Of a stretch of 64,000 bases of DNA, positions 3,758 through 39,693 are shown piece after piece (position 1 is the stretch's first letter; each line of letters begins with the position of its first letter). The notes below the pieces were generated by a model. It did no database searches and had not been told where the DNA came from. It saw only the letters and a program-made list of their open reading frames with translations. The position numbers and the translations under genes were made by a program. The DNA is from an uncultured Candidatus Bathyarchaeia archaeon (GTDB lineage: Archaea; Thermoproteota; Bathyarchaeia; Bathyarchaeales; Bathycorpusculaceae), in the NCBI GenBank assembly GCA_964654925.1, contig CAZZKO010000002.1, forward strand, positions 9,589 to 73,588, given 5' to 3'.

Positions 3758-3872
3758 TACTATCAACTTCCCTCAGCTATATTTTCTTTCTGCGTTTAAG
3801 CGACACTGTATAAAGGTAAAAATATTCTGTTAGCGGGAGGGGGTTAAGATAGTTTTAGTAGCGGGGGGTCGA

Positions 3873-3900
3873 CTTTCAAGGGGTTAGGGCTTAACCCCTT
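3873..3900 (-). other. tRNA-iMet intron 2 (non-canonical 59/60 position in the T-loop, 28 nt)
   Basis: This is a perfect hBHBh' motif. The T-stem is GGUCG/CGACC, the central helix UUCA/UGAA, the bulges AAA and AGU, and the outer hairpin AGGGGUUA-AGCCC-UAACCCCU. Cutting after the 2nd bulge nucleotide regenerates the T-loop UUCAAAU. Confidence 0.85.
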
Positions 3901-3922
3901 TTTGAACGACCGATCTCTGGGT

Positions 3923-3943
3923 TTCCAAGAGCTATGTTGCTCT
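3923..3943 (-). other. tRNA-iMet intron 1 (canonical 37/38 position, 21 nt)
   Basis: AGAGCAACAUAGCUCUUGGAA. The hairpin GAGC/GCUC and 3-nt bulges UAA/AAA flank a relaxed central helix CUCA/UUGG (one mismatch, one GU). Confidence 0.8.
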
Positions 3944-4007
3944 TATGAGCCCAGCGGGTTAATCCTGGCTACCCCACCCCGCTATATGTATGCTGAAACG
4001 GAACTTT

Positions 4008-20308: not shown

Positions 20309-21012
20309 CTAAATTTTGTGGCCATAGCGTCCGGTTAATGGAACAAAAGCCACTCCTCCAAGGTTTTCTTCTATAATTCTGCCGTCGCTTCTTTTTGTGA
20401 TCCTCATTAAGTTTTGAAAAAAGTGCATGCTTCCCACGGGGATAACCATTATTCCTCCAGGCTTTAACTGCTCTAATAGAGGCCTCGGGATTTCAGGCGC
20501 CGCTGCAGTAACTAAAATACGATCATATGGCGCTTTTTCCGGGTAGCCCATGGAACCATTTGCCGATATAATCGTGATGCGGTCGCTGTATCCTGCTTTC
20601 ATGATGTTTTGTCTCGCCATTTCAACTAACGCGCCTATTATCTCAACCGTATATACGTGGCCCCATTCACTTCTAGGCGCATCGCTTGGGGCTACAATCT
20701 CCGCTACTGTCGCGGCATGCCATCCTGACCCTGCACCTACCTCCAACACTTTTTGGCCTACTTCCAACTGGAGGGCTTCATTCATTATTGCGACCATGTC
20801 TCGCCTGGCCAGCTTTCAGCTTGGCCATGTGGCGCAGAAACCGTCTGCCCATATCCAATTGGAAGAGGCGTGTCCGCTGCACTGTATGCTTTCATGTTTT
20901 CCGGTAGAAATTTTGATCGAGGTACAAGGCGCATGGCTCTGATTACTCTCTTGGATCTTAATATGCCTTCTTTTATTAAATTGTCAATAAGTCTATTCCA
21001 TTCTTCTTCCAA
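20309..21012 (-). CDS. pcm: protein-L-isoaspartate O-methyltransferase, interrupted by a 29-nt BHB element
   Basis: The gene reads as exon 1 (21012..20829) and exon 2 (20799..20309). Exon 1 ends ...[14 protein letters not shown] and exon 2 starts [26 protein letters not shown]... Joined, they total 675 nt (224 aa) and give a colinear PIMT. Confidence 0.85.
20800..20828 (-). other. candidate BHB intron within pcm mRNA
   Basis: The sense strand reads CGCC[ACA]UGGCC-A-AGCU-GAA-AGCU-GGCCA GGCG[AGA]CA. This is a 4-bp helix flanked by 3-nt bulges on opposite strands, plus an outer hairpin. Confidence 0.6.
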
Positions 21013-21090
21013 GATTTTTCACCGCCCAATCAGGTTTCATGCGTACATTTTAACATATGTCTAATTTTAGGGAGAAGTGCTTGTTAATGC

Positions 21091-26439: not shown

Positions 26440-27326
26440 ATGTTGAGGACAAACGTGGATAAGTTGGTGAAAATCTCCGTAATTGGTGAAGTTGCGAGTC
26501 CAGTGTATCGAAATGTTTACAATGTCTCAGCTGAAGGGGTTCCCATGGTCTTGCCTTGTGTAGGAGAATAACCTACAATGTTAGGGTTGGTGATACTGCG
26601 TGTGGTTGAGAAGCTGATCATGTAGAGCCTGAAGTTAGCGTAGAAAACAAGGAAAATGACCCGAGTTTTGGACGAGGGGCAAATGTTGCCCTCAATTTGC
26701 TTTCATGTGTTGGTAATGAGGCCATTGTGGTTTCAGGAGATGCTAAGGGTGCAAGGGGTGTTGTGACGGTAAGCATGGCGGGATAGAACACGTGCTTGTT
26801 GACTTCCCGCCTGAGGTTCTTGAAAAGCTTGTGATCGGTGATAAAGTACTAGTGAAGGCTTTCGGAGTTATCTTAAAACTTTTAGACTTTCCGGGAGTCA
26901 AGGTTATGAATATGGACCCTCGCTTCCTTGATGCTTTGGGCATAAGGGCTATTGGAGATAAACTTGAGATTCCTGTGACACATGTTATTCCCGCGGCAAT
27001 TATGGGTTCAGGTTTAGGAGCGAATCAAACCTACACGGGCGATTATGATATTCAACTTTTTGATGAAGGTATCTGCAGGAATATGGTCTTGATGATCTCC
27101 GACTCGGCGATCTTGTGGCCATTCTCGATGCTGACCATTCGTATGGAAGAATTATATCGAAAAGGCGCGGTTTTCTGTTGGTATAGTAGTGCATGCAAAC
27201 TGTATGACTTCAGGCCATGGGCCAGGTGTGACAACACTGTTCACTTCAGCGTCGGGCAAAATTATTCCAAAAATAGACTCAAAAGCTAACATAGCTTATG
27301 TGCTGAAGCTAAGGACAGATATATAA
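26440..27326 (+). pseudogene. DUF4438-family gene, heavily decayed
   Basis: A protein-like reading is recoverable only by switching frame near 26565, 26768, 27080, 27153 and 27170. There is also an in-frame TGA at 26607..26609 where Trp fits (ACG*EADHVEP). Confidence 0.7.
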
Positions 27327-37231: not shown

Positions 37232-38269
37232 ATGATTGAAATCGATGGAAGCCAGAAAAGCGGTAGCGGCACGATTCTCAGACTTTCCATAGCCTTTTCC
37301 TCCATCACTGGAAAGCCTATTCGAATATACAACATTCGACAGAATAGACCCCAGCCTGGATTAAGGCCTCAGCATTTGGAAGCCGTTTTAACAGCCGCAA
37401 AACTTTGCAACGCTTATGTGGAAGGAGCCCGTATTTCTTCCCGTGAACTCCTGTATGAACCAAAAGATATTAAGGGCGGAAAATTTGAGGCTGAAATAGG
37501 TACTGCTGGAAGCATTTCAATGCTTATTATGACCGTGCTTCCCATATGCATATTTGCAAAGAGCACCGTCCACCTTCATATCTCAAAAGGTGGCACTGAT
37601 GTCCAACATGCGCCAACAATAAACTATATGCAAAGCGTATTTATGCCAGTTTTAAAGCAGATGGGGATCACTGCTAGCATTACAGTTCTGAAATATGGCT
37701 ATTACCCGAAAGGAATGGGTGAAGTAACCTTAACTGTTGAACCGTGCAGGGAGTTAAATCCGCTGGTGTTGGAGGAGCCCGGTAAAATCAAGGCTGTAAA
37801 GGGAATTTCAGTCTGCCCTTTTCTGGCTGAGAAAAGGGTCGCAGAGCGCCAGGCAGCCGCAGCAAAAGAGTATCTAAAAGAAAGGGGGTGCTCAGCGGAC
37901 ATTAGAATAGTGAATGATAGGTCAAATCCACTGCAGAAGGGTAGCTCCATAGTTTTATGGGCTGAAACTGACAAGGGTGCGTTGTTGGGCGCTGATGCCA
38001 TTGGCGAACTCCAAAAAACAAGCGAGGCTGTAGGCAGGGAGGCTGCGGAAAAGTTGTGGCAGGAAATCTCCTCCGGGGCTACAGTTGATATGCACTTGGC
38101 AGATATGCTTGTGCCTTACATTGCATTAGCTCCTGGGCGGTCTATTTATTTAACAAGGATGTTTTCTGATCATTTAGACTCGAATATTTGGCTTTCCGAA
38201 ATTTTTCTGGGAACGAAGTTTAGAATAGAAAAAATAAAGGAACTTTACAAAGTGGAAAAGGTGAGATAA
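37232..38269 (+). CDS. rtcA: RNA 3'-terminal phosphate cyclase
   Basis: IEIDGSQKSGSGTILR...GGTDVQHAPTINY...H..DML. Confidence 0.9.
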   Translation: MIEIDGSQKSGSGTILRLSIAFSSITGKPIRIYNIRQNRPQPGLRPQHLEAVLTAAKLCNAYVEGARISSRELLYEPKDIKGGKFEAEIGTAGSISMLIMTVLPICIFAKSTVHLHISKGGTDVQHAPTINYMQSVFMPVLKQMGITASITVLKYGYYPKGMGEVTLTVEPCRELNPLVLEEPGKIKAVKGISVCPFLAEKRVAERQAAAAKEYLKERGCSADIRIVNDRSNPLQKGSSIVLWAETDKGALLGADAIGELQKTSEAVGREAAEKLWQEISSGATVDMHLADMLVPYIALAPGRSIYLTRMFSDHLDSNIWLSEIFLGTKFRIEKIKELYKVEKVR

Positions 38270-38271
38270 TT

Positions 38272-39693
38272 TTGAAGGCTAAGATACGTGGAATATACTC
38301 AACCGCTCTAACAAAATTGCTTATGGACCACGGCTTTAAGATCCTTCAGCCTTCAAAGGTCATAAAAGAGCGTTTCAATCTTCCAAGCAGTAACAATGAA
38401 CCCCCAGAAGTTACAATAAAGGATAGAAGCGATCTCCAAGGAATCGTTGCTTTAGGCTCTCCCGAGGCTGTGAATTTTTTACAGACAGTCCTACAAGAGT
38501 CTCTCGAAGATGTTTTAACCAGAAAATGGAGCGTGAGTGTGGATGGAATATACAAAGGAACTGTAGTTAAAAGAAGTGAAAAGGGAGTTTACGTAGATAT
38601 CGGAAACGGTGTTTTAGGTTTAATCCCTGGACATGAAGCTCCACCGGAAGACCAAAAGGAAGTAATCGTTCAGGTTGAGCGCAAAGGAATTGGAAGGAAG
38701 ATTCCCCTTCTAACAACTCGACTAAAAATTGTCGGAAAGTATGCCATTCTCATCCAAGGATGCAAAGTTGGAGTAAGCTTAAAAATTCAAGATGCAAATA
38801 AACGAGTGGAACTTTGCAAGCTTGGGAAGGAATTATCTCCGGAAAACTGGGGAATAATTTGGCGTGAACCGGCAGCCTATAAACCAAAAGAATTTTTAGA
38901 GCAAGAAATAGCCAAGCTTTCTGATAGAATCAGAATTTTAAGCGAGAAAGCGTCCTCTAAGGAATCTTCAGATCTGATCCTCGAAGGATTAAGCTTTATG
39001 AATGTGGAGTTTCCTTGCTCGGCAAAGAAACAACTAGACGAGTTAAGGTCAACCGTAACACCAACAATCAAGGGGCATCATTTTTTCAAAAGTTGCGGAG
39101 GCCGGATTTCAGCAGCCTTGGAAATGGCCGAAAAACTCTTGGAAAAAGAGGGCAACAAAGACAAAATTGAACAGCTTTTCAGGGAGCAGATACAATCAGA
39201 ATTCCCTGAAAAAGGCGCTTTGGTAGACGTGGAGCATGTTAAACCGAGCGGTGTCGTTTTAAACCTCGGAAAAGCAACAATAGAAGCGTTGGATGCTGAA
39301 ATGGTAAGGTATCATAGAACTATTAGGGCTGATGGTGTATATGACGGGCTTGGCGTGGAGAAAAAAGCCGGCGACAAAGCTGTAAGCGAGGCAAAACCGG
39401 GCGAGTGGTACATTATAACAAATTACTTCTCGAGTGATGCAAGCTGGAAAGGCGCTTACATAAACATAAACACGCCAATTGAGGTTTATCCAAAAGCCAT
39501 AAGATATATAGATTTAGAGGTGGACATCTGCGTTTCCCCCAGTGGCGAAGTAAAAGTCCTAGATATGGAAAAACTTCAAAGAGCCTATGAAAGGGGAATT
39601 TTAAGTGGAAAGTTATTTGAAAAAGTTGGAAAGATTGTTAAAAACCTATTGGCAACAGACTTAATCCAGAACATTCTAGCTAACTTTATCTAG
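38272..39693 (+). CDS. fau-1: FAU-1/DUF402 RNA-binding protein (RNase E/G-like)
   Basis: KIRGIYSTALTKLLMDHGFKILQPS..., S1-like segment, C-terminal DUF402. Confidence 0.85.
   Translation: MKAKIRGIYSTALTKLLMDHGFKILQPSKVIKERFNLPSSNNEPPEVTIKDRSDLQGIVALGSPEAVNFLQTVLQESLEDVLTRKWSVSVDGIYKGTVVKRSEKGVYVDIGNGVLGLIPGHEAPPEDQKEVIVQVERKGIGRKIPLLTTRLKIVGKYAILIQGCKVGVSLKIQDANKRVELCKLGKELSPENWGIIWREPAAYKPKEFLEQEIAKLSDRIRILSEKASSKESSDLILEGLSFMNVEFPCSAKKQLDELRSTVTPTIKGHHFFKSCGGRISAALEMAEKLLEKEGNKDKIEQLFREQIQSEFPEKGALVDVEHVKPSGVVLNLGKATIEALDAEMVRYHRTIRADGVYDGLGVEKKAGDKAVSEAKPGEWYIITNYFSSDASWKGAYININTPIEVYPKAIRYIDLEVDICVSPSGEVKVLDMEKLQRAYERGILSGKLFEKVGKIVKNLLATDLIQNILANFI

Follow-up and report, generated by a model that had tools for sequence, protein, structure and literature searches.

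The stretch of DNA analysed here (the window) comprises 64,000 nucleotides (nt) of contig CAZZKO010000002.1 (assembly GCA_964654925.1, positions 9,589 to 73,588) from an uncultured Candidatus Bathyarchaeia archaeon and has a G+C content of about 42%. On its minus strand lies pcm, the gene for protein-L-isoaspartate O-methyltransferase (PIMT), in the form of two open reading frames (ORFs), 20785..21012 (75 amino acids, aa) and 20309..20797 (162 aa). The sequence bears out a preliminary description of this DNA, according to which the gene is broken between a His and a Met codon by an insert that shifts the frame. We report that the insert, 20800..20828, has the properties of an archaeal bulge-helix-bulge (BHB) intron lying in the coding region of pcm, and that it would be removed by the tRNA-splicing pathway, a reading to which we assign, on comparison of related sequences, a probability of about 0.9. 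The features of the locus, together with those of an intron-bearing tRNA gene in the same window, are collected in Table 1.

Table 1. Features of the interrupted pcm gene, of its predicted intron and of the initiator tRNA-Met gene (positions are those of the window).
Feature	Position	Strand	Description	Basis
pcm exon 1	20829..21012	minus	61 codons and the first base of the His62 codon; ends ...GGG CAG ACG GUU UCU GCG CCA C	ORF list, sequence, collinearity with 225-aa PIMTs
pcm intron (predicted), 29 nt, AUGGCCAAGCUGAAAGCUGGCCAGGCGAG	20800..20828	minus	predicted removal gives SAPH^MV and a 224-aa PIMT	homologous inserts at the same site
pcm exon 2	20309..20799	minus	AC (completes His62), then Met63 to Ile224 and the stop codon	ORF list, sequence
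Central helix H, 5' strand CGCC (exon)	20831..20834	minus	Ala60 codon positions 2-3 and Pro61 codon positions 1-2; pairs with GGCG 20802..20805	
5' bulge ACA, 3 nt	20828..20830	minus	predicted cut 20829/20828	unpaired in 39/41 single-sequence folds and in the RNAalifold consensus
Intron hairpin h'	20806..20827	minus	UGGCCA/UGGCCA, one bulged A, inner GCU/AGC stem, GAA loop	
Central helix H, 3' strand GGCG (intron)	20802..20805	minus		pairing with CGCC across homologues
3' bulge AGA, 3 nt	20799..20801	minus	predicted cut 20800/20799	unpaired in the consensus fold
Exon-side closing pairs h	20797..20798	minus	C20798-G20835, A20797-U20836	
Initiator tRNA-Met gene	3859..3983	minus	two introns	read from the sequence by eye
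tRNA-iMet intron after position 37	~3923..3943	minus	register ambiguous	no clean 4-bp H by eye
tRNA-iMet T-loop intron	3873..3900	minus	canonical hBHBh'	recovered by the motif scan with the same cut rule

The sense strand at the break reads guuucuG CGCC ACA UGGCCAAGCUGAAAGCUGGCCA GGCG AGA CAuggucg and continues past AGA as CAUGGUCG. Deletion of the 29 nt in silico joins GCG CCA C^AC AUG GUC (predicted junction ...GUUUCUGCGCCAC^ACAUGGUCGCAAU...) and opens a 224-aa ORF with a TTG start. As had been predicted, this ORF is an uninterrupted PIMT reading SAPHMV. It matches Pfam PCMT (PF01135) with an E-value of 8.8e-67 over profile positions 4-208 of 210 and the PIMT of P. furiosus (1JG1) with 4.5e-61; the latter alignment is gapless over the junction, where a stretch of 13 residues is identical. 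Aligned with the uninterrupted 225-aa PIMTs of Bathyarchaeia, to which its identity reaches 78%, the spliced product likewise shows no gap at the junction, and its closest matches carry the names Candidatus Bathyarchaeia or Bathyarchaeota. A full-length profile match, a structure match and the contiguous motif, taken together as the mark of the PCMT family, were found for the spliced product only. The sequence Pro-His-Met is obtainable by three registers in the window, of which the BHB rule selects one. At the other end of the gene, close relatives start with GTG or ATG three codons further upstream (V/MNILEEEW...), a frame which a TGA closes in the window; the first usable start is the TTG at 21012 and the true start codon, which concerns the interval 21012..21030 on the minus strand, is uncertain.

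The elements of a BHB-like fold that had been listed for this site, namely a 4-bp CGCC/GGCG helix, the 3-nt bulges ACA and AGA and a hairpin with a bulged A, are all present; the hairpin, however, had been labelled an outer one and is instead the intron-side helix h'. The comparison with shuffled controls suggested at the time gave a folding energy of -27.8 kcal/mol for the 61-nt region (z = -4.2), a stability reached by 0/200 dinucleotide shuffles. In the minimum free energy (MFE) fold of this region, CGCC pairs with GGCG, ACA is unpaired and the hairpin is formed. On the exon side the window has a G-C and a U-A pair, that is 2 bp, and formally reaches the strict hBHBh' class, which requires an exon-side helix of at least 2 Watson-Crick pairs (PMC7714728).

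The insert is not peculiar to this contig. When pcm was sought in one genome for each GTDB species, 80 Bathyarchaeia loci were obtained; 38 of them have an insert, 28-33 nt long, at the identical site, and in 42 the gene is uninterrupted. A pattern scan of metagenomes, in which the third base of the Ala codon and its intron partner were left free and the two outer As of the 3' bulge were fixed, added a further 111 insert-bearing loci. In total, 136 sequences differ from one another when exon tail and intron are compared, and their inserts measure 28-35 nt. The insert length is divisible by three in only 13/136 of them, and a reading frame across the insert is therefore not under selection. Six contigs from other samples keep both the synteny GlmS-pcm-FEN1 and the insert, which is lengthened by +A to 30 nt or by +C and +A to 31 nt, with AAA as 3' bulge, TCC as the upstream codon and intact exons. 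Among the close relatives as a whole, which come from JGI samples 3300027863, 3300000082, 3300005278, 3300043544 and 3300002182 and from run SRR7787871, the insert measures 29, 30 or 31 nt. The exact 162-aa and 75-aa ORFs are also present in public collections, with sister sequences in clusters at 90% identity. The comparison of pcm loci that the preliminary description had called for thus found the insert both present and absent among relatives, and it found compensatory changes in the helix as well.

All 136 sequences share one layout, in which the exon CGCC is followed by a 3-nt bulge, a hairpin, GGCG, a 3-nt bulge of the form A-N-A and then C AUG. Helix H is paired at 4/4 positions in 135/136 distinct sequences, and both bulges, with bounds set by H, h' and an invariant G-C pair, are exactly 3 nt long throughout. 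The 5' bulge is ACA in 134/136 and UCU in 2/136 distinct sequences (the UCU loci are L037, L043 and L046); the 3' bulge is always A[A/C/G/U]A, its outer As being fixed by the search pattern for the 96 metagenome-derived sequences. The third base of the Ala codon and its intron partner form G-C in 134 sequences, A-U in one and G-U in another, none of the 136 being mismatched there: L059 combines exon GCA with intron GGUG, an A-U compensation, and L047 has the G.U pair. Covariation was assessed on a MAFFT alignment of 41 sequences with gaps confined to the loop, in which H was 99.4% and the first five pairs of h' 97.6% paired. Double, compensatory changes were found at six pairs, including all five first pairs of h', and the covariation score was reached by 0/500 column shuffles; registers slid by 1-3 columns were only 16-40% paired. 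Each of the 41 sequences has 3-12 contiguous pairs in h'. RNAalifold, given no structure, returned the same H, 3-nt bulge and h' with the 3' bulge unpaired, and no outer helix. Many MFE folds contain a longer outer helix, in which ACNGU (Thr-Val) pairs with AUGGU (Met-Val); it was considered and rejected as a selected structure, since coding fixes these bases and no preference for pairing is seen at the free third base of the Thr codon.

The codons at the insert are marked as well. In the insert-bearing genes the third base of the Ala codon is G in 40/41 (the single A is compensated), that of the Pro codon A in 38/41 and that of His62 C in 41/41, compared with A14 T4 G19 C5, C11 A9 T14 G8 and C27 T15, respectively, in 42 intronless genes. 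The neighbouring Ser, an internal control, has a free third base in both groups. Fisher P values for the Ala, Pro and His sites are 6e-8, 1.5e-11 and 1.3e-5, all inflated by shared ancestry. Synonymous sites in the exon part of the motif are frozen in insert-bearing genes only. In every sequence GCN CCN CAC AUG (SAPH^MV) is recovered in silico if each bulge is cut behind its second nucleotide, and the junction register is most sharply defined by L037 (Bathyarchaeota BA2), L043 and L046, in which the UCU bulge makes the genome read SAPLG followed by a stop codon. In these lineages the invariant His is recreated only when ...GCGCCUC is joined to ACAUGG..., which is the cut between the second and third nucleotides of both bulges; this leaves no place for explanations that have the N-terminal ORF used as encoded.

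These patterns bear directly on the possibility that pcm is a split gene, its two ORFs being translated separately (62 residues with a junk tail, and 162 aa from Met63) and assembling into an active methyltransferase, with the insert as a mere spacer. Both ORFs are indeed intact and conserved, exon 2 starts exactly at an ATG, and the protein annotated by gene callers as well as by NCBI and JGI is the 162-aa ORF, with Met63 as the start of at least 91 cluster representatives. A spacer would nevertheless explain neither the covariation at the RNA level nor why the synonymous sites of GCG CCA and CAC are frozen, and the N-terminal piece of the UCU lineages would end in SAPLG without the invariant His. 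Moreover, the tails of the N-terminal ORF are not conserved, and no contiguous motif of the family is more conserved than the one in which the break falls. We consider a split gene very unlikely.

It might also be supposed that a short insertion, left by a duplication or as the scar of a mobile element, has inactivated pcm and that the gene is decaying; the insert does break the frame, and the window also holds a truly disrupted DUF4438 gene. Both exons of pcm are, however, under purifying selection, with a ratio of nonsynonymous to synonymous substitution rates (dN/dS) of about 0.05: against L001 and L002, exon 1 gives 0.045-0.069 and exon 2 gives 0.054-0.059. The insert has been kept while synonymous sites approached saturation over all insert-bearing species (median pS 0.67-0.76). 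Relatives combining the insert with additional disabling mutations, which according to the preliminary description would have indicated a plain pseudogene, were looked for. The insert was the sole lesion in 45/45 loci of the first set, where the PIMT frame after predicted intron removal is intact, as it is in 109/111 metagenome loci; no further lesion or stop codon was present in 41/41 sequences of the genome and close-relative set. A decaying gene is highly improbable on these grounds.

Recoding, by which the ribosome would get past the insert through translational bypassing, known from phage T4 gene 60, or through programmed frameshifting, could draw on the stable hairpin after the break, on an in-frame stop shortly downstream and on the motif ACAUGG repeated at both borders (as ACATGG at 20830 and 20799, in agreement with the preliminary description); yet, with the repeats 31 nt rather than 29 nt apart, landing on the repeated CAU would lead into the wrong frame (GGU CGC...), matched codons for take-off and landing are lacking in the UCU-bulge lineages, frameshifting would add 9-11 unconserved residues within SAPH^MVA, and neither process explains a 4-bp exon-intron helix with fixed 3-nt bulges, so that we give it hardly any credence. 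Repeat-mediated deletion was rejected on the same mismatch between the 31-nt spacing of the repeats and the 29-nt insert.

The interpretation of the insert as a BHB intron also has several observations to contend with. The bare motif (a 4-bp helix, a 3-nt bulge and a hairpin with 5 bp or more) was counted 129 times in the window, Markov shuffles giving 126 +/- 10, and the motif alone is therefore no evidence; its significance derives from its falling exactly on a frame-breaking insert, for which we estimate an expected frequency of about 1.7e-5 for a motif with both ends on a given pair of positions (129/(128,000 positions x ~58 spans)), and from the comparative data. In the MFE fold of the window itself the 3' AGA does not bulge but is paired to a UCU further upstream; this pairing, unlike the bulge, is not conserved, because relatives have TCC upstream and AAA as the bulge. 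The complete motif is found in only 18/41 single-sequence MFE folds. On the exon side the G-C pair is invariant (41/41) but the second pair, U-A, is present in only 14/41; the weak outer helix UG/CA that had been described is thus formed in the window by both pairs but is not a conserved property of the family. Because the exon-side helix is weak or absent across the family, its members would mostly belong to the relaxed HBh' class, the window itself just attaining hBHBh', and such a helix would call for an endonuclease of broad specificity, either (alpha-beta)2 or epsilon2. Two insert-bearing loci deviate: L025 (DUHG01000167.1) has GACG for GGCG and hence a C.A mismatch in the central helix, and the spliced frame of L106 (Ga0187773_10035391) ends early, at a stop 86 codons in. 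Both may be decaying copies or sequencing errors. Finally, no EndA gene was found in the 64-kb window by Pfam on 20 mid-sized ORFs or by phmmer with the M. jannaschii EndA, a query verified against 1A79.

To the same side of the balance belong the searches for spliced forms. The exact 47-nt spliced junction had 0 matches in JGI contigs, and a full-length query returned no protein more than 78% identical to the product of the window. When full-length matches were compared with the spliced products, near-identity was seen to intronless loci only and none was more than 90% identical to an insert-bearing lineage, and a junction-centred 103-aa query retrieved only fragments starting at Met63 or intronless lineages, with no junction-spanning protein of this lineage; 91/119 cluster representatives retrieved by it start exactly at Met63. 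The absence of a spliced form weighs little because these collections are essentially DNA assemblies, and it neither supports nor refutes splicing.

The searches also revealed how the locus is annotated. ORFs of roughly 162 aa starting at Met63 make up at least 91 clusters (90% identity), for example P0163, P0170, P0192 and P0225. NCBI and JGI name these fragments 'protein-L-isoaspartate O-methyltransferase', exon 2 being routinely annotated as the whole protein, and a few annotated starts lie inside the intron (MRARRNMVSIM..., MVSALRWARRHMVSIM...).

The anatomy of the pcm intron, its conservation and covariation, the exactness of its junction and the selection on both exons are direct observations, and the earlier reading of an endonuclease-spliced BHB intron has gained strong support from the comparative evidence, five predictions for related sequences having been borne out. 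From this pattern we infer that splicing takes place, and by which enzymes. In the pre-mRNA, exon CGCC of the Ala60 and Pro61 codons would pair with intron GGCG to form the 4-bp central helix, the 5' bulge ACA being closed by the intron hairpin and the 3' bulge AGA by only one or two exon pairs. EndA would cut between the second and third nucleotides of each bulge, 20829^20828 and 20800^20799, and a ligase of the RtcB type, an enzyme that joins 2',3'-cyclic phosphate and 5'-OH ends, would connect ...GCG CCA C to AC AUG GUC... and probably circularise the intron. The ribosome would then be able to make the full 224-aa PIMT. Recognition of the BHB and cutting between the second and third bulge residues are known for archaeal EndA and have been confirmed by cDNA for cbf5 (PMC2738675), and relaxed or non-canonical substrates are cut only by the (alpha-beta)2 and epsilon2 enzymes (PMC5829648).

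The distribution of the insert may reflect a long history. In a neighbour-joining tree of spliced or native PIMT proteins, of low resolution as it is built on one short protein, the intron occurs in deep branches of Bathyarchaeia (L028, L039, L037, L047, L043/46) and in one large clade; intronless genes are interspersed (e.g. L010, L007, L009, L011, L012 and L008) and the outgroups are intronless. The intronless L010 has the Ala-Pro codons GCA CCT, as opposed to the GCG CCA fixed in insert-bearing genes. The simplest reading is that the intron is old within Bathyarchaeia and was gained once at this site and then precisely lost in several lineages, because the site and the GGCG-A-N-A end are shared. 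One carrier, L046 (JAEOSI010000127.1), is labelled Candidatus Wukongarchaeum yapensis and has a 30-nt UCU-bulge intron identical to that of L043, its sister in the protein tree; either this contig is mis-binned or an intron-bearing pcm exists outside Bathyarchaeia.

Other parts of the window are of interest with respect to RNA processing. The preliminary description had noted that the same cutting rule regenerates the UUCAAAU T-loop of the initiator tRNA-Met at 3873..3900, which proved correct, and the gene has a second intron besides. The presence of a T-loop intron in this essential tRNA implies that excision of BHB introns from non-canonical positions is indispensable to the organism, and it speaks indirectly for a putative endonuclease able to cut relaxed motifs. 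ARAGORN and Rfam (gathering and E-value thresholds) reported no tRNA or RNA family in the window, and the initiator tRNA was missed. On the plus strand, 37232..38269 encodes RtcA, the RNA 3'-terminal phosphate cyclase (PF01137, 1.2e-75), directly followed by a 473-aa S1 / RNase E-G / DUF402 protein resembling FAU-1; this RNA end-processing pair, spanning 37232..39693, shares the window with both intron-bearing genes. A looser motif combined with an ORF-merging test disclosed no second convincing split gene among the mRNAs of the window; the merged candidates were fusions of neighbouring unrelated genes, for instance of a dihydroorotase and a Mut7-C protein or of a CBS and a Trm5-like protein, and were discarded.

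The DUF4438 gene mentioned above (26440..27289, plus strand) has at least three lesions, and Pfam covers only profile positions 89-134 and 2-52. An early stop follows ...PCVGE, a TGA lies in frame at a point where the neighbours would continue (CG-stop-EADHVEPE), a 1-nt frameshift precedes DGKHGGIEHVLVDFPPE and the C-terminus is derailed. This gene is either a pseudogene or the product of an assembly error and contrasts with the single clean insert in pcm.

An intron in the cbf5 pre-mRNA of Crenarchaeota was reportedly described by Watanabe in 2002 and Yoshinari in 2006. Like the pcm insert, the cbf5 intron of Desulfurococcales and Sulfolobales is a short BHB-type intron in a coding region with a mostly relaxed motif, a cut predicted between the second and third bulge residues, a highly variable interior and a conserved motif, and its patchy distribution has been read as one gain with lineage-specific losses (Yokobori 2009, PMC2738675). 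The host genes and lineages differ, an RNA pseudouridine synthase in Crenarchaeota in one case and a protein-repair methyltransferase in Bathyarchaeia in the other, and splicing of cbf5 has been demonstrated by cDNA sequencing and in vitro cleavage, whereas that of pcm is predicted. The hBHBh' and HBh' motifs of non-canonical tRNA introns are said to go back to Marck and Grosjean in 2003. Such introns, the two in the initiator tRNA of the window included, share with the pcm intron the architecture, the cut rule and an exon that provides one strand of the central helix. They are processed by EndA and RtcB, the relaxed forms needing an (alpha-beta)2 or epsilon2 enzyme (PMC5829648). Unlike these, the pcm intron lies in an mRNA, with no tRNA body to aid recognition, and its removal would have to occur before or despite translation.

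A further mRNA substrate of the archaeal splicing endonuclease is the intron in the 5' untranslated region (5'-UTR) of Haloferax volcanii HVO_1309, removal of which appears to be needed for efficient expression (Schwarz 2020, PMC7714728). It differs from the pcm intron in that it lies in an untranslated leader and interrupts no ORF; moreover, its motif is canonical, and the euryarchaeon that carries it has a homodimeric enzyme. The splicing of HAC1/XBP1 by Ire1 and a tRNA ligase or RtcB is similar in being a spliceosome-independent, structure-guided double cut of an mRNA followed by a ligation that changes the frame; that system, however, is eukaryotic and stress-regulated and uses another endonuclease and motif, and the pcm intron is not a member of its family.

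According to Schwarz et al. (2020), the cbf5 mRNA intron had until then been the only additional BHB intron reported in archaea (PMC7714728). The preliminary description was right in placing pcm as a new case alongside cbf5 and incomplete in overlooking the BHB intron in the Haloferax 5'-UTR. In the openly accessible literature we found no paper linking isoaspartate methyltransferase with BHB introns or the tRNA-splicing endonuclease, and for BHB introns in archaeal mRNAs the same literature yielded only cbf5 and the 5'-UTR of HVO_1309. The pcm intron would be only the second BHB intron known from a coding region in Archaea, after more than 20 years.

There is a small chance that removal of the intron is not constitutive and represents a control point tying PIMT synthesis to the activity of EndA and RtcB, in analogy to HAC1/XBP1, and, in a related and similarly doubtful reading, endonuclease-spliced mRNA introns could be far more common in Bathyarchaeia and other TACK archaea than the one textbook case would lead one to expect, hidden as 'truncated' or 'frameshifted' ORFs. 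Were the former true, the fact that the intron has stayed in place within the catalytic SAPH^M motif for so long in evolution might reflect function, not tolerance. More immediately, the 162-aa 'PIMT' of many Bathyarchaeia metagenome-assembled genomes (at least 91 clusters at 90% identity) is without the N-terminal third of the protein, which distorts metabolic and completeness calls; a motif-aware rule could correct this mis-annotation. With an unrelated gene, a major uncultured lineage and more than 130 natural variants, pcm suggests that splicing of mRNA by the tRNA machinery is not a curiosity of one gene. The variants constitute a natural mutational series for the requirements of a relaxed BHB substrate, and their patchy distribution allows the gain and the precise loss of introns in archaea to be put to a direct test.

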